In this document: in pieces, positions 9,755 to 41,459 of the stretch
How positions within the stretch are numbered: position 1 is the stretch's first letter
How the letters are laid out: the number at the start of each line of letters is the position of its first letter
Virus record (IMG/VR): IMGVR_UViG_3300027896_000001
Coordinates: 64,001 to 128,000 of that record
DNA length: 64,000 nucleotides
Direction: 5' to 3' (one strand)
DNA from: a virus
Position numbers and translations under genes: made by a program
Notes under the pieces: generated by a model
Databases searched by the model: none
What the model was told of the DNA's origin: nothing
What the model saw: the letters and a program-made list of their open reading frames with translations, nothing else

Positions 9755-10388
9755 TGTTAAAAGGTTAATACAACTAAAATAGACAGCGAGAAGACGATCC
9801 GGCGAAGCACCTGAGCCAGTGCTGCTGACATCTCAAATCGAGTTGAAGCGCGCAGTGCCGACGACACGAGGCGACAGAAGTAATGAAAGAGTTCATGATA
9901 CGATGAGTTGGATGCGGGCAGGCTGAGCCGAAGGAGCAGCCGGACCTCAGACAGCTCATCGTGAAATGAACGATTTTCATTACTTCAAGACGAGTGCAGG
10001 TCGGAAAATCTTCAGCGAAGGATGACGCTGAAACACCTGAGCCCCTGACCGCATGGTCGAGGGGCCGAAGGCTTGTCTCATCTCCAGGCGCCCGCGAAGC
10101 GTGGCGAATATGGAGATGAGATGTTTTGAGGAATCCTGAAGCAATCGCGGGCTGGTGGCGCATAGCGGGAAGGGCTCGGGTCCGGCGCCTAGCGCCGGAT
10201 AAGAGCCCTGAAGCTCAATTGCGCCATCCAGAACGCGGTGGTGAAGATTTTAACGAGCACTTCGAATCGATCGATGTCAGCTGCTCTGGCGGTGGTGCTG
10301 GAGCCGTGTGAGGTGACGAGTGTGTTTTCTTTCGTCATTGATTGGCGAATCACCAACCTGGCAATAAACTTGTATTAACCTCTTAACA
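9755..10388 (-). ncRNA. Retron-like msr-msd cassette A (634 nt)
   Basis: 19-bp terminal IR (9755-9773 / 10370-10388) with a G-U pair on the minus strand; unpaired G at 10369 opposite G at 9774; hairpin loop TGATTCG at 10340-10358. Confidence 0.75.
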
Positions 10389-10395
10389 AATTTGA

Positions 10396-10656
10396 TAAAG
10401 TACAACTAAAAATGAATACGAGGGCGGGCTAGATTCTCCAGGAGGAGTAGCTGCAGTGCAGCATCAATCCGCCGACGCGGGGTCTGCACGTCGGGAAAAC
10501 AGACCAGTTTTACTGGTCTGATGAACCGACTGCACGACGCCGCGCTGGCGGAATTGATGCGAAACGCAGCGGAGCCTCCAGGAGAATAGGGCACGACGAG
10601 TTGTAATATTATTATCATCGATCGCCGAAACAGCGATCAAAAATGCTTGTACTTTA
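10396..10656 (-). ncRNA. Retron-like msr-msd cassette B (261 nt)
   Basis: IR taaagtacaa/ttgtacttta; G at 10646 opposite G at 10406; TGTTTCG hairpin at 10620-10638. Confidence 0.75.
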
Positions 10657-11067
10657 GTTTGATGTTTCCACATTCAAAAAATAGTAACCGTTTTCCATTT
10701 TATCGCTTATCATTTCAGAAGCTAAACCAACTCCTGAACATGAGATGGTTCGAGATTCGGTATCAACAACAAACCTGATGCCTCGAAATGAAAAGTGTAA
10801 AAATTTATCAAGTTTGTCAGCCGCTTCCGCAGGAGTATTTTCTGTTTGTTTTGCAAAAGCAGCTTGCTTTTTTCTATCGATTATTTCGACATCTTTAGGT
10901 GTAAGAGCCACAATACATCCATCTGCATTTTTAGGTTCTCCCATATAATCATTACCTTCAAGTATGAATTTTTTAACATCTACACCTTCATTAAACGCGA
11001 CAACCGCGTGAAATGTAATTTTTGCGTTTACTTTTGTGCTTTTTTTTCTCTTCGGTTTTTCAAGCAA
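10654..11067 (-). CDS. Hypothetical protein inside the ncRNA array
   Basis: AAGGAGG RBS, TTG start, AT-rich coding composition; its stop lies in the arm of cassette B. Confidence 0.75.
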   Translation of the reverse strand: MLEKPKRKKSTKVNAKITFHAVVAFNEGVDVKKFILEGNDYMGEPKNADGCIVALTPKDVEIIDRKKQAAFAKQTENTPAEAADKLDKFLHFSFRGIRFVVDTESRTISCSGVGLASEMISDKMENGYYFLNVETSN

Positions 11068-11091
11068 TTATTCCTCCTTGGTAAAAAAATA

Positions 11092-11120
11092 TGAAAGGGG
11101 AGATTTTAATCTCCCCTCTC
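11092..11120 (-). terminator. Terminator-like or processing hairpin after cassette C
   Basis: gaggggagat/atctcccctt stem followed by a T-rich tract on the minus strand. Confidence 0.5.
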
Positions 11121-11123
11121 TGT

Positions 11124-11324
11124 TTGCAATATAACTTGATTGAACGTGATGATCTGCTACGGGCGAGCGACGGACCAGTATCCTTCCTAAGGATACCTGG
11201 TCCCGAGCGAGCCCGTTGCCAGATCAGAGCGGCTTCCTGCCCAATTGGGCAGGAATGGGCTTGTTTTGTGCTATTAGCACATACCAGGCGAAACACCTGG
11301 CGCCCTACTAAGCTTATATTGCAA
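11124..11324 (-). ncRNA. Retron-like msr-msd cassette C (201 nt)
   Basis: IR ttgcaatataa/ttatattgcaa; G at 11313 opposite G at 11135; TGTTTCG hairpin at 11284-11300. Confidence 0.75.
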
Positions 11325-11335
11325 TTTTTTTATAT

Positions 11336-11610
11336 GAAATTAATACAACTAAATTCGATATTTTCTAGGGGTCATCAGGAGACTGTAGGGACCAAAAAGT
11401 CTGGTGCGCAATGCGGGCAGCAGAATTCTGACAGTCGTCACGTTCAGATTTCTCGTAGAGACATCGGAACGTGACAATCGTCAGAATTATGCTGACGACA
11501 TGGAGCACCAGACTGTTGGTCCGGGAAGGATCCTGATGACTGGGAGAAAATCCCATAGTTACTCTATAATGCTGTCGAAACAACAACGTAAAAAATCTTG
11601 TATTAATTTC
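11336..11610 (-). ncRNA. Retron-like msr-msd cassette D (275 nt)
   Basis: 13-bp IR gaaattaatacaa/ttgtattaatttc; G at 11597 opposite G at 11349; TGTTTCG hairpin at 11571-11587. Confidence 0.75.
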
Positions 11611-11615
11611 TAACA

Positions 11616-12273
11616 AATTTGCATAACTAAATTGAGCGGTAACTTCGATATGGAGAAAAAGGCTGGATATTTTACAAATTTCGCAAGGAACCGAATTGAA
11701 CGGCTTGACGGACGAAATTTGCCAGCTGGGTGGACCTGAGATCCGTTGAGTCGTGCCCATGAGGTGGGGAGCAAAAGGCCGAAGGCCTTGTGAGCCACCT
11801 TGATGGGCAAAGACTCAGAGGATCGGTGGTCCAAGAAGCTGGTAAATTTTGTCGACTAGCCGTTTCAGATTCCGAGAAATTTGTAAAATTGATGCCGGTT
11901 GGTCTTCTTACGCTGCGAGCGCAGTCCGAGGGCTTTTACAATTTCTTCTTCAGGCTGAACCTGAAGAAAAATTGTAAAAACGTAGGACAAGCGAGGGACG
12001 TAAGAAGATCAATTTTCGACATATCGAAAAGGACCGGGACATAGCCTTCGAGGATGAATCAACGCAAATTTTCGAGTACGAACGTTCAAGCGACGTTCCA
12101 GACAAAGCTCGAGAAGACCACTTCTCGAGCTCTGTCTGGAAAAGGAACTGAACGTCCGTGCGAAGTAAATTTGAATTGATTTATCCGGGTAAGAAGGCGT
12201 TCATTTATAACACTTATTCCTGAACGAAACATTCAGGTCGAGATCGGGGACCTCGAAAAAACTTATGCAAATT
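11616..12273 (-). ncRNA. Retron-like msr-msd cassette E (658 nt)
   Basis: IR aatttgcataa/ttatgcaaatt; G at 12262 opposite G at 11627; TGTTTCG hairpin at 12219-12237; three long stems in the body. Confidence 0.75.
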
Positions 12274-12377
12274 GTTTTAAACACAACGTTTGCGCTATGC
12301 TGACGTGCCGGTTCCTCCGGCATGTGGCTTTAGCCCTTGCAGCATGGCGCTGTTAGGTGCTGTAAAATTTGTTTCCA

Positions 12378-13160
12378 TTATTTGTTTTTGCGCCTCTTCA
12401 TTAATTTTTCTTTTTCGGCTGACGTGAGCGAACCCAGGTCGAGAGAGCCGCCAATCTCGGTGGGCAGTTTCAGCCCAGCGGCTGACGTGAGCGAACGCAG
12501 GTCGAGAGAGCCGCACTTTGTGGGCAGTTTCAGCCCAGCGGCTGACGTGAGCGAACCCAGGTCGAGATAGCCGTCAATCTCGGTGGGCAGTTTCAGCCCA
12601 GCGGCTGACGTGAGCGAACCCAGGTAGAGAGAGCCGCCAATCTCGGTGGGCAGTTTCAGCCCAGCGGCTGACGTGAGCGAACCCAGGTCGAGAGAGCCGC
12701 CAATCTCGGTGGGCAGTTTCAGCCCAGCGGCTGACGTGAGCGAACCCAGGTAGAGAGAGCCGCACTTTGTGGGCAGTTTCAACCCAGCGGCTGACGTGAG
12801 CGAACGCAGGTCGAGAGAGCCGCACTTTGTGGGCAGTTTCAGCCCAGCGGCTGACGTGAGCGAACCCAGGTCGAGAGAGCCGCTATATATTCCATTTTTG
12901 CACGTCTCGCCCATTGCCCAATTGAAAAACTCAACGAACGACGGATAATGATTTTTCAACCGCTCGTTACATTCCTGCTCAGTTATTTTATCAGTAGGGG
13001 CAACGCGGCAGACTATTTGTCCGCTCGGTAAATAGTGCCCTTCGCGCCATAGCTTTTCGTTCAACTCCAATTTCGCTTGCGTCTCGCTGTGCGATTCTAA
13101 ATTAAAAACCGCGACGTCCCCATTATCGGGGCGATGAAAAAAACTGATGAATTGGCACAT
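12378..13160 (-). CDS. LRR-like tandem-repeat protein
   Basis: About 7.5 copies of GSL(D/Y)L(G/R)SLTSAAGLKLPT(KC/EIG); AAGGA RBS. Confidence 0.85.
   Translation of the reverse strand: MCQFISFFHRPDNGDVAVFNLESHSETQAKLELNEKLWREGHYLPSGQIVCRVAPTDKITEQECNERLKNHYPSFVEFFNWAMGETCKNGIYSGSLDLGSLTSAAGLKLPTKCGSLDLRSLTSAAGLKLPTKCGSLYLGSLTSAAGLKLPTEIGGSLDLGSLTSAAGLKLPTEIGGSLYLGSLTSAAGLKLPTEIDGYLDLGSLTSAAGLKLPTKCGSLDLRSLTSAAGLKLPTEIGGSLDLGSLTSAEKEKLMKRRKNK
12417..12881. repeat. 60/63-bp near-identical tandem repeat, about 7.5 copies
   Basis: Core ggctgacgtgagcgaac occurs 8 times; unit length is 60 or 63 bp. Confidence 0.95.
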
Positions 13161-13393
13161 TGTATTTCCTTTCTTGTTTTAGGCGCAAAAACCTATTTAT
13201 ATTGCCTTGACAAATTTTATTGCATCCCAACTGAGATTTGATTCGTGATGGTTGCGCGAGTGGAGGTTGGTATAAAATACAACGTCTGCGTCGGTCGCAG
13301 AAGCGTTGTATTTTAGACCTACCGACTCGAGCCAACTATCGCGACCATTAACAATATAACAGCTCGGTCGAAACAACCGAATGAAACTTGTGT

Positions 13394-36197: not shown

Positions 36198-36446
36198 ATG
36201 CTTGGAATCAAAAGTGAATACTTTGAAAAAACGGCAAGAGAGATCCCTGAACCGTTGAAACGTTTATTGTCAAAAGTCAGAGACGATGCCAAGGATACAT
36301 ACGACTTGGTTACCAAGCTTCCGGGAAATGACACATTTGTAAGCCAGAATCTTATTTTTTATACTCCGCATATTCAAGTAGCAAAAATTAAAGAAAAACA
36401 AAATGGAAAAAAAAGAAAAATAGGAGTGTTTAAATTCGGAGAATAA
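36198..36446 (+). CDS. Hypothetical protein
   Basis: Directly follows the upstream stop; contains FEKTA. Confidence 0.5.
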   Translation: MLGIKSEYFEKTAREIPEPLKRLLSKVRDDAKDTYDLVTKLPGNDTFVSQNLIFYTPHIQVAKIKEKQNGKKRKIGVFKFGE

Positions 36447-36532
36447 TATTATAATTAGGTACATCGGTAGTACCTCCTTGGTTAAGGTGGGAAGACGGCT
36501 CTAGAACATCAGAGCCGTTTTCTTTTAATGGC

Positions 36533-36568
36533 TAAAAAAAAAGAGCCTCCTGGGTCGGAGGAGGCTCT
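36533..36568 (-). terminator. Intrinsic terminator of the RT operon
   Basis: agagcctcct/aggaggctct stem followed by a long T-run on the minus strand. Confidence 0.85.
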
Positions 36569-36573
36569 ACAAA

Positions 36574-36798
36574 CCAGTTAACACTACGGAACAGAACCTG
36601 ACTGGGGTCGGGGGCCAGGAAGGTTCTCACCTGACTGGCCCCGCCACACGGAAGCGTAAGCTTATCGTGTGGACAGGCAGACGACTTGACGCGCGTCGCG
36701 AGCCGGAAAGGTAAGCGAGCGACGTCAGCCGTCAATGATCATCCAGCGCGGAACACGCTGGTTGAGAGTATTTTATCTCTCCTTCCGCAATTAACTGG
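36574..36798 (-). ncRNA. Retron-like cassette G, RT-proximal (225 nt)
   Basis: Stem ccagttaa-ttgcggaa / ttccgtag-(tg)-ttaactgg; G at 36782 opposite G at 36592; TGTTCCG hairpin at 36743-36761. Confidence 0.7.
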
Positions 36799-37021
36799 CA
36801 GGATTTTGATCGGGATTTTTATGAAGCTGTTTTACGACTTTTTTTATTTTTTTAATTTTTTTTCTCGTGTTTTTTTTTGTTTTATGATTTTTTCTTATTC
36901 GTTTGATTGTTTCGGAGACATACGGAAATATCGCTTTCGCAAAATTTGCCGTAATGTCAACTATAATGTTGAATGCTGGCGATCTTTTATTTAGAATCGC
37001 CTTTGATTCAGGCTCGTTCAT
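36791..37021 (-). CDS. Small Lys-rich protein in the RT operon
   Basis: Overlaps the RNase H stop (ATGA); highly basic C-terminal half. Confidence 0.6.
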   Translation of the reverse strand: MNEPESKAILNKRSPAFNIIVDITANFAKAIFPYVSETIKRIRKNHKTKKNTRKKIKKIKKVVKQLHKNPDQNPAS

Positions 37022-37518
37022 AAAACAGCCCTTTCTTTTGGTTGGTTTGTGAGAAGGTCTCTTAGAGACTCATCCACATGAATATTGAATTTGCATGTGG
37101 AATGTCCTTTGACCCATTGGAATTTGAAGCTCTTGAACTCGGGGGTTAACCTGCAAAGCTCCTTCCAAAGGTCAGAATTAATAACACCTCCTCCTGATGA
37201 TTTTCTCCAACCATTCCTTTTCCATTCCTCTGAATATTCGGTAAAATTATCGGACACGTAACGCGAATCGGTAATAACAATACAATTATTATTCGACGCT
37301 CCGTCATAACTTTCTTTTAGAAGTTTTATTAAATCTTTCAACCCTTCAATTACAGCAGTCAATTCCATACGATTATTGGTTGTATTTGTCACTATATCTC
37401 TTTTACTCGAAATTTCATTTTTTGCCGGATCAAGAATTATATAAGCCCATGCGCCATTACATCCAGCGTTTCGTTTGTTTCCCGAACAACCGCCGTCTGT
37501 ATATATTGAAAACTCCAT
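37018..37518 (-). CDS. rnhA: Ribonuclease HI
   Basis: IYTDGGC, TNNRMELTA, TDSRYV, WKRNGW, NSDLW, WVKGH, N..VD. Confidence 0.95.
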   Translation of the reverse strand: MEFSIYTDGGCSGNKRNAGCNGAWAYIILDPAKNEISSKRDIVTNTTNNRMELTAVIEGLKDLIKLLKESYDGASNNNCIVITDSRYVSDNFTEYSEEWKRNGWRKSSGGGVINSDLWKELCRLTPEFKSFKFQWVKGHSTCKFNIHVDESLRDLLTNQPKERAVL

Positions 37519-38585
37519 TATGCTGCGGCCGTTCTAGGGAATTTTTTATTTTCGAATTCCGTTAGTTGGCGCATGTATTTGTTTCCTTTTTCAGGATTTA
37601 CCGACATCAAAAACGATGCCCACCCCTTTAAACATCTTATTCTTGATTTTGTCGTATGATCAGGGAATTTGTATATTGCATGATGAACTTTCGCCCTGAA
37701 TTTTTTGAACAGACTTTTCTGAACATTGGGATTCTTGTTTATAACTACGCCGCATATTTTAAGCCTCGAGCCTTTTCCTCGGTATCTTGTTTTTTCTCTT
37801 TTGGGAGAAAATTTGAACGCCCATAACAATGCGTACGCTTTCTTTTTTGTTTTTTCCATTAATTCCAATGGTGATAATGTGGGACTGCTAAACGCCAGAT
37901 CGTCTGCATATCTGGTATACGTTATCCCGTGTTGTTTGCAATGTTCGGTCATTGCTATGTCAAAACCGCGCATCACTATATTCGCAAGCATGGGAGATGT
38001 GGGGAAGCCTTGGGCCGTAAACCCATTATATGTACAGGCTTCTATTACTCTTTTAAAAAGAGATTGATAACCAGTTTCGTCACAATAATTTGGTATGAAA
38101 ATTGCTTTTATTTCTTCGCATTTATATTCGAAATTTACAACCTTATTTTTATATAATGACGGATGGCATTTTCCATCAAGCATTCTTGTGTATTTACTGC
38201 AATATCGGCAAATATTTTTATTGCCGAACAAACAGTTTTTCAGATGGTCAACCGATATCGAATCAAAAAAACTTTTGATGTCTACTTTTCCTAAAGATAT
38301 ACATCTTAAATGTTGTGTAGCATTGGTTACTATTCCTCTTTTAGGAACAAACCCGTGCGCAGCTTCATGATATGAATATCTTTTTAGGAATCTGAAATAA
38401 ACGAATTTTTGGATATGTTTTAAATCATCATCAGGGGCTATAACAACTCTTTCGGATCCGTCTTTTTTGGGAATTGTAAAACGATGAATATGCCTTTCTT
38501 TGTCATTAAGAATGGCATCGACCTCTTCTCTCGTTTTCCCAAAAATCATTTTAAAATCAAAGTTGCTTGTCCTTTCCGGCTCCAT
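37518..38585 (-). CDS. Retron-type reverse transcriptase with a Cys-rich insertion
   Basis: IPKKDGSER, AHGF, region X NATQH (NAxxH), DIKSFF, QGFPTSP, YTRYADD, region-Y-like ICGVVIN. Confidence 0.92.
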   Translation of the reverse strand: MEPERTSNFDFKMIFGKTREEVDAILNDKERHIHRFTIPKKDGSERVVIAPDDDLKHIQKFVYFRFLKRYSYHEAAHGFVPKRGIVTNATQHLRCISLGKVDIKSFFDSISVDHLKNCLFGNKNICRYCSKYTRMLDGKCHPSLYKNKVVNFEYKCEEIKAIFIPNYCDETGYQSLFKRVIEACTYNGFTAQGFPTSPMLANIVMRGFDIAMTEHCKQHGITYTRYADDLAFSSPTLSPLELMEKTKKKAYALLWAFKFSPKREKTRYRGKGSRLKICGVVINKNPNVQKSLFKKFRAKVHHAIYKFPDHTTKSRIRCLKGWASFLMSVNPEKGNKYMRQLTEFENKKFPRTAAA

Positions 38586-39669
38586 CAACTACCTCCTGTT
38601 GGCCTGGTTTGATTGTTTTAACAGCATCTTTTCTTGCTTGATTAATGTCTTTTGCCGATCCTGTTTTAATCAGTTCATCTGCTTTTTTCTCGACCGGATC
38701 GGTTGGATCTACTGCATATTTTTCCATAGGTTCGATCTCCTCTTCTTGGTTTAATATTTTTGACATATCTTCTACAAATCTATCAAGCAATTGATCTTTT
38801 ACTATTCCGGCGCCTACGTTATAATGACCGCCGCCACTTACTAAATAATCAAAACTTGAGAATGTTTTTCCTATATTTATTTCATTTGCTTCTTTTTGCC
38901 ATTGATTATAACCAACTTCTACATAAACATTATTGTTACCAATAGGTGTTATTCTTAATATGTATTTAATGTTCGGAAATATTAATAATTCGGCATATCT
39001 TGGAAATTGTCCTTTTCTTCGTTGGTTTACTATCGACATTTTTTTCGCCAGGACAATAGAGTTTTTTATCTGCAATGCACTTTTTTCAAGCTCTCTCACA
39101 TAGTATGGACCTATCCTTAAAATATAGATAGCCTCTTTAATATCAAGTTTTGTTTTTTCAAGAACTTCTACTATTCTACAATAAGTCATTTCGTTTGGAA
39201 AAGCTCTTTCGATATAAGCTCTTAATATCATCATAGGGCTTTTATCCATAAAAATCTGATTAATGTTTTTATAGGAAGCCGAATCAATCATATCCACAAG
39301 CGATATGAACGACTGGTCATAATCGAAAGTATCATTTAATCTTATAGTATGCACAAGCCTTGCCGCTGAAGGGCTTTTTGGATTATAGATTATTTTATTA
39401 TTCTTGATTTCGCACTCACCAAAGTCGGGATTAAAATGATGATCAACCCATAAATCAGCGTCTTTATGATATTGAAAATCTAGGATAATTTTAAAATCAC
39501 CTTTTTTTTTAATGATACTGGGGAAAAAAATATTAAATTTAGAACCTCTCCATGACGACGATACAGGATATAACCTGTATCTTCCGCGAACAACATTATG
39601 AAGATATAAGGATGCAGAAATAATACCATCTATATCGTCGTGGAAAAAGACATGTTGCGTTCCGTTCAT
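38557..39669 (-). CDS. DHH/DHHA1 phosphoesterase (NrnA/RecJ superfamily)
   Basis: HDDIDG, LDF, VDHH, SAA, GGGH motifs; start MNGTQ after AGGAGG; overlaps the RT start. Confidence 0.85.
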   Translation of the reverse strand: MNGTQHVFFHDDIDGIISASLYLHNVVRGRYRLYPVSSSWRGSKFNIFFPSIIKKKGDFKIILDFQYHKDADLWVDHHFNPDFGECEIKNNKIIYNPKSPSAARLVHTIRLNDTFDYDQSFISLVDMIDSASYKNINQIFMDKSPMMILRAYIERAFPNEMTYCRIVEVLEKTKLDIKEAIYILRIGPYYVRELEKSALQIKNSIVLAKKMSIVNQRRKGQFPRYAELLIFPNIKYILRITPIGNNNVYVEVGYNQWQKEANEINIGKTFSSFDYLVSGGGHYNVGAGIVKDQLLDRFVEDMSKILNQEEEIEPMEKYAVDPTDPVEKKADELIKTGSAKDINQARKDAVKTIKPGQQEVVDGAGKDKQL

Positions 39670-39705
39670 TTTCCTCCTTAAGCAAACAGTTAAAATTCTT
39701 CTACT

Positions 39706-39720
39706 ATAATTGTTATTACA
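39706..39720 (-). promoter_or_regulatory. Phage promoter-like motif TGNNATAACWATWW upstream of the RT operon
   Basis: One of 7 copies found upstream of minus-strand units. Confidence 0.6.
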
Positions 39721-39769: not shown

Positions 39770-40123
39770 TTATCTCAATGTTTTTCTTATTGGAAGGTGG
39801 GAAAGGCGTCTGTCTTCAAGATGGCTTAAATCAGTTGTAGACTCTGCTACGACCTGCTGAGTGTCGGAATCCATGGGCTTGCCTATTATCCCTTCATCCT
39901 GGTGTAAAGGCTGTACATCGGCATTTGAGCGGGCTTTATGAATGGTTCCCTGCAGGTTCCTGCTATTTCTGCTGTAAGTTTTTATACCGGTCACAGCTTT
40001 AGGATTGTGTTTAGTTGAAGTTTTAACTGTATTTATAGAGGAACTTTCACTTGTCGAGGAAATAGATTTTGCTATTTTCTCTATCAGTAATTTGTTATTA
40101 ATCAAATATGAAAGATTTATCAT
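39770..40123 (-). CDS. Hypothetical protein
   Basis: Contains IEKIA motif. Confidence 0.55.
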   Translation of the reverse strand: MINLSYLINNKLLIEKIAKSISSTSESSSINTVKTSTKHNPKAVTGIKTYSRNSRNLQGTIHKARSNADVQPLHQDEGIIGKPMDSDTQQVVAESTTDLSHLEDRRLSHLPIRKTLR

Positions 40124-40193: not shown

Positions 40194-41459
40194 TTACTTT
40201 TTTTCTGTGGCTTTCGCGCCAACTACTCCCGCTCCTGCGCCACCAGCGGCAAGGCCCGCGCCTATTGTCACTGGATGTTTCGCAAGTCCTTTAACGGCTT
40301 CCATGCGGTTGGGCCCCAGACTCTTGATCATTTCTTCATTCACCATCTGCCCTCTTCCCGTTCCTACTTTGTATTTCTGGTGGCCGCCCTTCATGAGCTT
40401 TGTAAGTCTTGCCGCCTCTGATTTTTCTGCAGAAGAGGAACCCATTACCGCTCTCCTCAAAAGTCCGCCGTAACCTTTAAAAGGATTTGCGCCGAGTTTT
40501 TCAAGCTCGTCGCGCATGGCTTCTTGGCGAATCATGTCATAAACACTGTCTGAAGACTCTTTCTCCATCAGTGCGCGTGCTCCCATGACTCCGCCTGCGC
40601 CAGCCCCTGCGCCGGCTGTCCCGTAAACAAGAGGATTTTTTGCAATGTTTTTGAGGTTCTCGCCGGCTGCTCCACGAAGACTCTTCCTCACCCACGACGG
40701 AATGGATTGATAAGCCTGTTCGCCTTTTCCGGTACGAATATTTTTTTTCACATCCTTGGAAAACCCTTTTCCAAGCTTTCCTTTCATCGGGCCGTATTTC
40801 GGAGCATGGAAAGAGGCTCCCATATTCCTGAAAAATTCTGCAGTCTCGTGCATGAGCCTGCTTGCAACATTGGCCTTTTTTGCACCGAACTTATCAAGAG
40901 CGGATTCTTTTTCCATCAATGCTGTACCGCCCGCGGCCCCGCCGGCGCCGATTCCAAGCGCGCCTGCGCCAATGGTAATTGGATTTTTCCCGAGTTCTTT
41001 GAGATGGGACATGCGCTGATGTTTGAAACCCTGTTCGACCCACTTGGGATAGAATTGGCCACCTTTCCTTGCGCTCACTATCTTTTTGATGGCCTCCTTA
41101 TCTGGACCTGAAAAAACGCCTTTTACGTGCGCGCCAAATTCCCCGACGGCCTTTGGCATTTTGAAACCGAGTTTTTCCAAAACAATACCAGCGGCATTGG
41201 ACAGATCTTCCTGAGTGATTTCAGCTGACTTTTCCACGTTTGCCTCCTGTAATCCGCGATCATAGAACTCGCGGGCGATTTGTTGGTTTTCTATTTCATT
41301 TTGTTCTGAGAATGCTTGAGTTAATGCGTTGGCGGCTTTTTTGGCTCCTACTCTTTTACCGGCTTTATATCCACCAAATCCAGCCCCACCTGCAGCAGCA
41401 GTTACGGCGAGTGTTTTTGCAACGGTTCCAAGAGTACCTCCTATTTTTTCTTGAGCCAT
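40194..41459 (-). CDS. Gly/Ala-rich repeat protein, probable internal virion protein
   Basis: Three modules of (E/D)K(L/F)G..K(N/H)P..GAG-rich helix..EK; terminator-like hairpin at 40143-40172. Confidence 0.6.
   Translation of the reverse strand: MAQEKIGGTLGTVAKTLAVTAAAGGAGFGGYKAGKRVGAKKAANALTQAFSEQNEIENQQIAREFYDRGLQEANVEKSAEITQEDLSNAAGIVLEKLGFKMPKAVGEFGAHVKGVFSGPDKEAIKKIVSARKGGQFYPKWVEQGFKHQRMSHLKELGKNPITIGAGALGIGAGGAAGGTALMEKESALDKFGAKKANVASRLMHETAEFFRNMGASFHAPKYGPMKGKLGKGFSKDVKKNIRTGKGEQAYQSIPSWVRKSLRGAAGENLKNIAKNPLVYGTAGAGAGAGGVMGARALMEKESSDSVYDMIRQEAMRDELEKLGANPFKGYGGLLRRAVMGSSSAEKSEAARLTKLMKGGHQKYKVGTGRGQMVNEEMIKSLGPNRMEAVKGLAKHPVTIGAGLAAGGAGAGVVGAKATEKK

Follow-up and report, generated by a model that had tools for sequence, protein, structure and literature searches.

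A conserved operon of large phages joins a retron-type reverse transcriptase to its own RNase HI, a DHH phosphoesterase and a downstream msr-msd-like RNA

Retrons are known as bacterial anti-phage systems in which one reverse transcriptase (RT) uses one template RNA, with a toxic effector at its side and RNase H supplied by the host. The 64,000-nucleotide stretch of viral DNA analysed here (the window) comprises bases 64001-128000 of the IMG/VR record IMGVR_UViG_3300027896_000001, a genome of 174,649 bp with direct terminal repeats that is rated 100% complete. Its minus strand carries a compact operon in which a retron-type RT is joined by a DHH phosphoesterase, a type 1 RNase H (RNase HI), a small basic protein and a structured RNA of the msr-msd type. 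These elements read as one predicted transcript that leads from a promoter-like motif through the four genes and the RNA to a terminator. The order of the genes is conserved among related loci, the RNA keeps its architecture with covariation, and the module is restricted to phages. The explanation favoured here, which is held with reasonable though far from full confidence, is that the whole constitutes a self-sufficient retron owned by the phage, from which the virus probably obtains a collection of small single-stranded DNAs (ssDNAs) for its own use. The operon consists of the following elements, in the order of transcription:

39704-39719, minus strand: phage-specific promoter-like motif GTAATAACAATTATAG, 16 nt, located 35 nt 5' of the DHH start codon ATG 39669
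38557-39669, minus strand: DHH/DHHA1 phosphoesterase of 370 amino acids, nanoRNase/PggH-like, with a conserved C-terminal tail
37518-38588, minus strand: retron-type RT of 355-356 amino acids, whose YADD, NAxxH and C-terminal region align with the Ec86 RT
37018-37518, minus strand: RNase HI of 166 amino acids, translationally coupled to the RT, with intact catalytic residues
36791-37021, minus strand: small protein of 76 amino acids, a hydrophobic helix followed by a Lys-rich tail
36573-36799, minus strand: msr-msd-like non-coding RNA (ncRNA) of retron style, 227 nt, with an architecture conserved in at least 18 of 22 related loci
36542-36568, minus strand: intrinsic terminator, a 10-bp hairpin with a CCGACC loop followed by T8

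The four genes are tightly packed. The DHH gene ends at 38557 and overlaps the start of the RT gene (ATG 38585 or TTG 38588) by about 29 nt, the RT and RNase H genes share 1 nt at 37518, the RNase H gene overlaps the open reading frame (ORF) for the 76-residue protein in the ATGA at 37018-37021, and the stop codon of this ORF already sits within the 5' arm of the RNA. All four coupled minus-strand ORFs described in the original prediction, a model's reading of the bare sequence, are therefore present, except that the DHH gene most likely begins at ATG 39669 behind an AAGGAGG rather than at the proposed TTG 39726. The promoter-like motif that the same prediction had placed before the operon is also well founded, as GTAATAACAATTATAG occurs three times with at most one mismatch, in each case on the minus strand and 28-40 nt before a start codon (1755, 15340 and 39669), and five times with at most three mismatches, against 1.2 expected, a count reached by none of 100 shuffles. 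Furthermore, at least 10 of 14 relatives have a similar motif, (G)TAATAAC(A/T)AT.., on the 5' side of their DHH gene. The strong terminator expected at the end of the operon is likewise found, with its 10 bp and T8 at 36542-36568.

The RT is a retron-clade enzyme by four independent tests. It matches Pfam RVT_1 with 69.8 bits and the PADLOC retron models with 215 bits (RT_XIII) down to about 135 (III-A, 191), while among the NCBIfam models retron_St85 reaches 191 bits, group II 57, Drt2 48 and Drt3a 31. The St85 score lies under the curated NCBIfam cut-off of 235, which places the RT outside the St85 family proper. The enzyme aligns end to end with the Ec86 RT (25% identity, E 8e-27); the stretch YTRYADDL is identical in the two, and the NATQH that had been read as retron region X aligns with NATPH of Ec86. 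In 39 members of the RT family, H93 is invariant and both N89 and A90 are nearly so. An AlphaFold model of the RT (pLDDT 92) has retron RTs as its top 17 PDB fold matches (E 2e-21 to 4e-15), the best being 7v9x (E 2e-21), and the G2L4, group II, DRT2, DRT9 and diversity-generating retroelement (DGR) RTs rank lower. In addition, the family carries an insertion of about 55 amino acids with four invariant Cys, which Ec86 lacks. The classification thus falls on the retron clade, and neither on group II introns nor on DGRs. A group II intron was considered and rejected (57 bits against a model cut-off of 300, and no Rfam match in the window), as was an RT of the DGR clade, whose structures stand far below the retron RTs in the fold ranking.

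Immediately 3' of the protein-coding genes lies the RNA, which had been predicted to follow the RT and which is indeed adjacent to it, on its 3' side and with the geometry of a retron. It has a G+C content of 59% in a genome of 37%, and it folds with z = -8.5 relative to shuffles. Its parts, all on the minus strand, are as follows:

36783-36799: 5' arm of the closing stem
36782: unpaired G after the 5' arm
36764-36781: first hairpin (SL1)
36743-36761: second hairpin (SL2)
36611-36642: hairpin H5
36602-36613: invariant sequence CCCCGACCCCAG
36592: unpaired G before the 3' arm
36573-36591: 3' arm of the closing stem

Twelve relatives share a common plan, in which the closing stem and its unpaired G are followed by SL1, a short GAGAG hairpin, by SL2, an 8-bp hairpin with a UGUU(U/C)CG-type apex, and by a variable hairpin; a GCCUGG box then pairs with the 3' tail in a helix that encloses two more hairpins, and CCCCGACCCCAG, the second unpaired G and the 3' arm complete the structure. 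The closing stems have no sequence in common and are nevertheless complementary, with a mean of -15.0 kcal/mol for cognate arms against -6.8 kcal/mol for non-cognate ones (standard deviation 3.1), and the cognate partner is the best in 10 of the 12 rows. In SL2 every cell of the alignment is paired, and five of its eight pairs have changed on both sides. The covariation of SL1 and SL2 amounts to 0.60 as compared to 0.33 in shuffled alignments, none of 500 of which reaches the observed value, and controls slid along the sequence give at most 0.20. A covariance model of SL1 and SL2 recovers the module 3' of the RT and on the same strand in 16 of 22 loci (E <= 0.0014), and in two further loci (L011 and L017) it was recognised by inspection. 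The 3' part of the RNA is also conserved in relatives, with 90% identity over 51 nt. Alignment-free duplex tests were used in place of a full-length covariance model because MAFFT misaligns the variable hairpins; RNAalifold on the whole-length MAFFT alignment returns either SL1 and SL2 alone or an alternative pairing of the 3' part. At gathering scores, no Rfam family is detected anywhere in the window, and a limit of E <= 0.5 likewise gives no match in 36300-37000.

The ends of this RNA match those of the Ec86 locus, which was fetched for comparison. Ec86 reads ..CCCUUA-G-CGAGAGG.., a hairpin with the apex UGUUUCG, and ..CUGAC-G-UAAGGG.., and the phage RNA reads ..CGGAA-G-GAGAGA.., SL2 with the apex UGUU(U/C)CG, and ..GGUUCU-G-UUCCG... 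As in Ec86, the unpaired G 36782 faces the unpaired G 36592, which makes the former a candidate for priming.

Two further observations concern the 3' part of the RNA and its terminator. Between 36597 and 36690, the GCCUGG box, both halves of H5 and the 3' tail CCAG.CAGG can form two mutually exclusive sets of helices, and in one relative (L005) all four of these elements are altered together (GCUUGG / CCAA); the region resembles a conformational switch, which could be thrown when the tail is reverse transcribed. The terminator loop CCGACC is the same word as that in the invariant RNA junction CCCCGACC. Among the 18 terminator-like hairpins of the genome, that at 36542-36568 is the only one with CGAC in its loop, and a terminator loop of the (C)CGAC(C) type, exact or one base off, is present in 9 of 12 relatives (L003-L019). 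The predicted complementary DNA (cDNA) would bear GGGTCGG, the complement of this word, which could be a shared protein-binding site or a contact between product and transcript.

The module as a whole has been preserved over considerable divergence. In all 22 related IMG/VR loci, whose RTs are 40-70% identical, the order DHH, RT, RNase H, small ORF and RNA is kept, convergent with the same 742-residue gene, apart from the RNase H gene in two of them (L020 and L021). The linkage of the DHH, RT and RNase H genes, which the original prediction had treated as decisive, thus extends to related genomes. The RT family comprises more than 120 clusters at 90% identity, many of them on contigs of 100-210 kb. 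At 50% clustering, about a dozen representatives show a full-length match with the insertion, beyond which the scores drop to the level of ordinary retrons. In 185,579 genomes of prokaryote species (one each), the sole RT above 32% identity that belongs to the family is found on a phage-like contig (CAZUBH010000002.1, 168,390 bp, 60% RT identity) binned into a metagenome-assembled genome labelled 'Thermoplasmatales archaeon'; this contig is almost certainly a phage genome misplaced by binning, and its placement is no evidence for an archaeal host. Neither a tyrosine or serine recombinase nor an integrase or resolvase is found in the complete 175-kb genome, whose genes include those for a fused beta/beta'-like RNA polymerase, a primase, a helicase, a polymerase-exonuclease and a large terminase. 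A single public sequencing run is listed as containing the stretch, a freshwater DNA metagenome that is probably its source, and no RNA run is listed for it. Phages in GenBank offer no DNA match and no RT above about 30% identity, and the best GenBank match of the terminase, about 27% identical, is to Bacillus siphophages. A crAss-like affiliation was weighed on account of the fused RNA polymerase, but no supporting evidence emerged and Yutin et al. (2021) leave an RT unmentioned. No description of the module was found in a full-text literature search. Taken together, these data point to a core function that is inherited vertically within a clade of phages that are large and probably virulent, and not to an abortive-infection defence.

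An alternative that has to be weighed here is that the phage carries a retron for superinfection exclusion or abortive infection, in which the DHH protein is an effector restrained by the RT and its multicopy single-stranded DNA (msDNA) until it is freed by a competing phage, for example to degrade pools of signalling molecules or nanoRNA. Classical retrons are indeed tripartite, with an effector gene beside the RT (PMC7736814). Ec86 itself resides in a P2-like prophage beside portal and terminase genes, and the DHH gene occupies an effector-like position and is specific to this RT. Nevertheless, the RT clade is absent from bacterial chromosomes, its position is fixed across 40-70% RT identity, the complete genome has no integrase, and a dedicated RNase H together with nine template-like cassettes (described below) has no parallel in defence retrons. 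To our knowledge, DHH/DHHA1 enzymes of this type are not toxins, and in one relative the active site of the DHH protein is lost. The original prediction had seen no recognisable toxic effector, and none of the DHH, RNase H and small proteins matches PADLOC or resembles a known retron effector. As the clade is confined to phages, holds a fixed core position and occurs in a genome without integrase, a borrowed abortive-infection retron is regarded as unlikely. The contrast drawn in the original prediction between an ssDNA production line and an abortive-infection retron is accordingly upheld in its second half, and the production of ssDNA stays a prediction from the sequence.

The second enzyme of the favoured phage-owned retron is an intact RNase HI. 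It scores 98.5 bits in Pfam (cut-off 25.8) and 108.7 bits against the NCBIfam RNase HI model, belongs to phrog_531, and bears D8, E52, D84, H139 and D149, which we take by analogy to be the counterparts of D10, E48, D70, H124 and D134 of the E. coli enzyme. As had been proposed, it is encoded by a separate phage gene, which lies 3' of the RT in 20 of the 22 related loci. The small protein that follows it belongs to no known family in Pfam, PADLOC, PHROG or NCBIfam. Counterparts of 40-84 amino acids with a basic tail occupy the same position in 12 loci, and they conform to the pattern (F/I)xxx(V/I)Dxxxx(F/L)(V/A)KxI(F/V)P.

The DHH protein finds no match in Pfam, PADLOC or NCBIfam, but a profile of its family built from 15 homologues matches the pGpG phosphodiesterase PggH (7d62, E 1e-12). 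Its AlphaFold model (pLDDT 86.4) has the two-domain DHH-DHHA1 fold, and Foldseek likewise places PggH first (E 9e-17, TM 0.59/0.71), with further matches to RecJ/Cdc45, pAp phosphatase, GdpP and NrnA (down to E 1e-8). The motifs HDDxDG, D64, W-x-DHH, D129 (DxxDS) and GGGH are at least 90% conserved among the 15 homologues. Two homologues carry the JGI label 'oligoribonuclease NrnB/cAMP/cGMP phosphodiesterase'. A C-terminal tail (MEKYGVD..DPVEKKA..ELVKTG..EAR) is common to all members, including the homologue in L022 (3390-4460), which has lost the HDD, DHH and GGGH motifs; its retention suggests, at the level of sequence, a structural role of the DHH protein beyond catalysis. A complex prediction for the RT with the DHH protein gave a score of 0.00, which counts neither way. 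In the locus L005 (3366-3423), the tblastn match to the DHH protein starts upstream of a stop codon that is in frame and close to the gene's 5' end, for which a different start, a sequencing error or stop-codon recoding are possible explanations.

The nearest solved relatives of the DHH protein, namely PggH (pGpG-specific), GdpP (c-di-AMP), Pde2/NrnA and DhhP, raise the question of whether it is an independent counter-defence enzyme, directed against immune or second-messenger nucleotides (cyclic di- and oligonucleotides, pGpG, pApA) and merely co-transcribed with an RT that has another role. Its genomic distribution speaks against such independence. The subfamily forms 74 clusters, more than 40 of which pair with RT clusters through a longest contig of equal size, and no homologue was found outside the RT-bearing set, so that every detectable member sits with an RT. 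In addition, the gene overlaps the start of the RT gene by about 29 nt, and the C-terminal tail outlasts catalysis, which suggests a structural link to the module. The counter-defence explanation is therefore given a small probability. The debranching role that had been suggested for the DHH protein also finds no support, as its nearest relatives are pGpG, nanoRNA and pAp phosphodiesterases and the L022 homologue is devoid of the motifs. A role in clean-up is proposed instead because RNase HI leaves short 5'-phosphorylated oligoribonucleotides, and such fragments are degraded by enzymes of the NrnA/PggH type.

According to the proposed mechanism of the phage-owned retron, the RT would recognise the two 5' hairpins, of which SL2 bears the UGUUYCG-type apex, and would prime at the unpaired G 36782 at the end of the closing stem; copying of the RNA would begin immediately 5' of the unpaired G 36592 on the opposite side. 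The phage RNase HI would then strip the copied template, so that host RNase H would not be needed. The DHH protein would most likely degrade the short RNA fragments left by RNase H, or trim the product, and the small basic protein may coat or chaperone nucleic acid. Furthermore, the same RT probably serves eight other cassettes with an identical end geometry, and a set of structured ssDNAs would thus be made during infection.

These additional cassettes were recognised by a rule that demands an arm of 12 nt with AA at its end, then a G and, within 45 nt, a hairpin, together with a 3' arm that follows a G and forms at least eight contiguous pairs. The rule finds nine closed cassettes on the RT strand and none on the opposite strand of this genome, numbers for which the strand asymmetry is the sole statistical calibration, since the rule was written after the genome had been seen; in two relatives, the counts are five against none (G001, 186 kb) and three against none (G003, 164 kb). 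The original prediction had called the RNA of the operon a seventh cassette, which holds but undercounts. Besides the RT-proximal RNA, six cassettes form an array about 25 kb from the RT operon (9774-13387, minus strand), and two more lie beyond the window. They are listed from the 5' G to the 3' G:

13387-12287, minus strand: cassette F, the largest, 1.1 kb
12262-11627, minus strand: cassette E
11597-11349, minus strand: cassette D
11313-11135, minus strand: cassette C
10646-10406, minus strand: cassette B
10369-9774, minus strand: cassette A
144864-144445 and 144375-144175 of the genome (80175-80864 in window numbering), RT strand: two more cassettes outside the window, 44 kb from the RT

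The arms of the six array cassettes close at -14 to -24.5 kcal/mol, as compared to -6 to -9 kcal/mol after shuffling, and each cassette has ..AA-G at its 5' junction, G-UU.. at its 3' junction and a hairpin with a UGUUUCG-type apex. With the SL1+SL2 model, a second module is detected at 12218-12254; the 680-nt stretch around it folds at z = -19. Five more hairpins of 7-9 bp with a G-UU(U/C)-C apex are located between 10.6 and 13.4 kb, and each of them lies on the RT strand. Every array body is single-copy in the genome and lacks conservation in the two relatives. A DGR was rejected as an explanation of the locus, given that no cassette body has a second copy in the 175-kb genome. From their sequence features, it is probable that the array cassettes are served in trans by the RT.

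Cassette F contains 63-nt tandem repeats and, on the RNA-sense strand, a 260-residue ORF with no credible Pfam match; if this cassette is reverse transcribed, its cDNA would carry a whole gene. The seven cassette bodies in the window fold 5-34 kcal/mol better as the cDNA-sense strand, and the first 50 nt fold better in the RNA sense in 16 of 17 cassettes, including all seven in the window. This asymmetry was rejected as evidence, as it extends to only 12 of the 17 bodies overall and was calculated with RNA parameters on both strands.

The cassettes might instead act as RNA, as decoys, processing units or 3' stabilisers, with the RT finding its substrate elsewhere, for instance by priming phage DNA replication or by copying phage or host transcripts. 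Three cassette 5' arms overlap the stop codons of upstream genes, which makes these cassettes 3' extensions of mRNAs, the array lies among replication genes, and its bodies are unusually large (up to 1.1 kb), all of which would suit such a function. It does not account as readily for the AA-G ... G-UU ends and the apex hairpin, which are found in 17 cassettes from three genomes and solely on the RT strand, for cassette ends that match Ec86, or for the constant attachment of one cassette to the RT operon, seen in at least 18 of the 22 loci, and a purely RNA-based role is thus considered improbable. A further proposal treats the cassettes as non-autonomous selfish retroelements that spread in the phage genome without benefit to the phage. 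They are multi-copy, tandem and different between relatives, as this would predict, but the operon occupies one conserved place behind a conserved promoter, its proteins are conserved over deep divergence, and the genome contains neither a further copy nor a target of any cassette body; selfish spread is therefore very hard to credit.

If the phage-owned retron does produce ssDNAs, the best guess as to their purpose is that they are decoys or inhibitors directed against host nucleases or defence sensors. This guess is derived from the evolution of the templates, as the array cassettes diverge fast and the RT-proximal one is conserved, and fast divergence fits an arms-race function better than housekeeping. 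In its full form, the idea is that one viral RT with a fast-evolving library of templates yields structured ssDNAs that serve as aptamer-like decoys or inhibitors, or, for the largest cassette, a cDNA copy of a gene; this is offered as a tentative possibility that is more probably wrong than right. Were it true, phages would have converted the retron, a tool of bacterial defence, into one of offence, equipped with its own RNase H and clean-up nuclease.

Several points weigh against a self-sufficient phage retron. The VTG of region Y, a defining feature, is replaced in the RT by ICG (KICGVVI, as against KVTGLVI in Ec86), so that what had been called region-Y-like is a substitution and no match; C279 and G280 are invariant across the family. 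Retron ncRNAs usually lie upstream of the RT and not downstream as here, and the body of the phage RNA is a multi-hairpin junction rather than the usual single msd hairpin. The SL1+SL2 model gives no significant match to the real Ec86 locus, for which reason a shared architecture, and not a proven homology of the RNAs, is claimed; kinship to the classical msr is argued from geometry and a 7-nt apex. Moreover, no RNase H gene was detected beside the RT in two of the 22 loci (L020, L021 (5529-5810)), where the SL1+SL2 module follows about 200 nt after the RT, and the loss of the catalytic motifs in L022 implies that the enzymatic step of the DHH protein is dispensable in at least one lineage. 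As for the cassettes, their defining rule was formulated after the fact, and in the relatives the SL1+SL2 model finds the RT-proximal copy alone.

Upstream of the operon lie two genes that are syntenic in many relatives and have no family match in Pfam, PHROG or NCBIfam:

40194-41459: gene for a Gly/Ala/Lys-rich protein of 421 amino acids with internal repeats
39770-40123: gene for a protein of 117 amino acids

Among the known systems, the type XIII retrons provide the best PADLOC RT model (RT_XIII, 215 bits), and the nearest RTs outside the family also score best there, but the phage RT matches just the C-terminal half of this 469-position model. Type XIII is defined (Mestre et al. 2020, PMC7736814) by two partners of the RT, a protein of the winged-helix/SWIM kind (cluster 114) and another of the HEAT/ARM kind (cluster 216), and membership was rejected because Pfam finds neither a winged-helix/SWIM nor a HEAT/ARM domain in any neighbour. 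Given the slim margin between RT_XIII and III-A, the absence of the type XIII partners and the weak typing of the nearest non-family RTs, the enzyme is not a confident member of any described type. A retron-like RT has also been annotated in the lytic jumbo phages of S. aureus known as MarsHill, Madawaska and Machias (bioRxiv 10.1101/2020.12.14.422802). These share with the present system a retron-clade RT in a large virulent phage, the lack of a recognisable effector and an adjacent region suspected to encode an ncRNA. Their RT differs, however, in its length of 501 amino acids and its unrelated N-terminal domain, and it is about 25% identical to that described here; its description mentions neither partners of the RNase H, DHH or small-protein kind nor a conserved RNA model or more than one cassette.

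The stand-alone DHH-DHHA1 enzymes PggH, NrnA and GdpP resemble the phage DHH protein in fold and catalytic motifs, but the latter is too divergent for Pfam in most members, possesses the extra C-terminal tail and is found solely beside an RT of this family. Similarly, the RT-RNase H of retroviruses and long terminal repeat (LTR) elements offers a functional parallel, in that an RT works together with a type 1 RNase H, by which the copied RNA is removed. In the phage, these are separate, coupled genes, the RT belongs to the prokaryotic retron clade, and nothing suggests genome replication through RNA.

The closest comparison is that with Ec86/Eco1 of E. coli (type II-A, St85 family). The two systems share inverted-repeat arms with one unpaired G behind the 5' arm and another before the 3' arm, a first hairpin of the GAGAG type and a second one whose apex is UGUUUCG; in Ec86, the 5' arm ends ..UUA before the branching G, and the template starts just 5' of the G that precedes the 3' arm. 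Ec86 differs in that its ncRNA lies upstream of the RT, it has a toxic NDT-type effector, one template per RT and a bacterial or prophage context, and it is without RNase H, DHH and small-protein partners. The phage clade thus departs from the retrons described so far in occurring only in large phages, as a core operon with its own RNase H and nanoRNase-like enzyme, no toxin and apparently many templates. If its cDNAs are real, this would be a retron that serves a virus, undescribed in the literature searched, and a natural multi-template ssDNA factory independent of host RNase H, with a bearing on phage-host conflict as well as on retron-based genome editing, which is limited by ssDNA yield and multiplexing.

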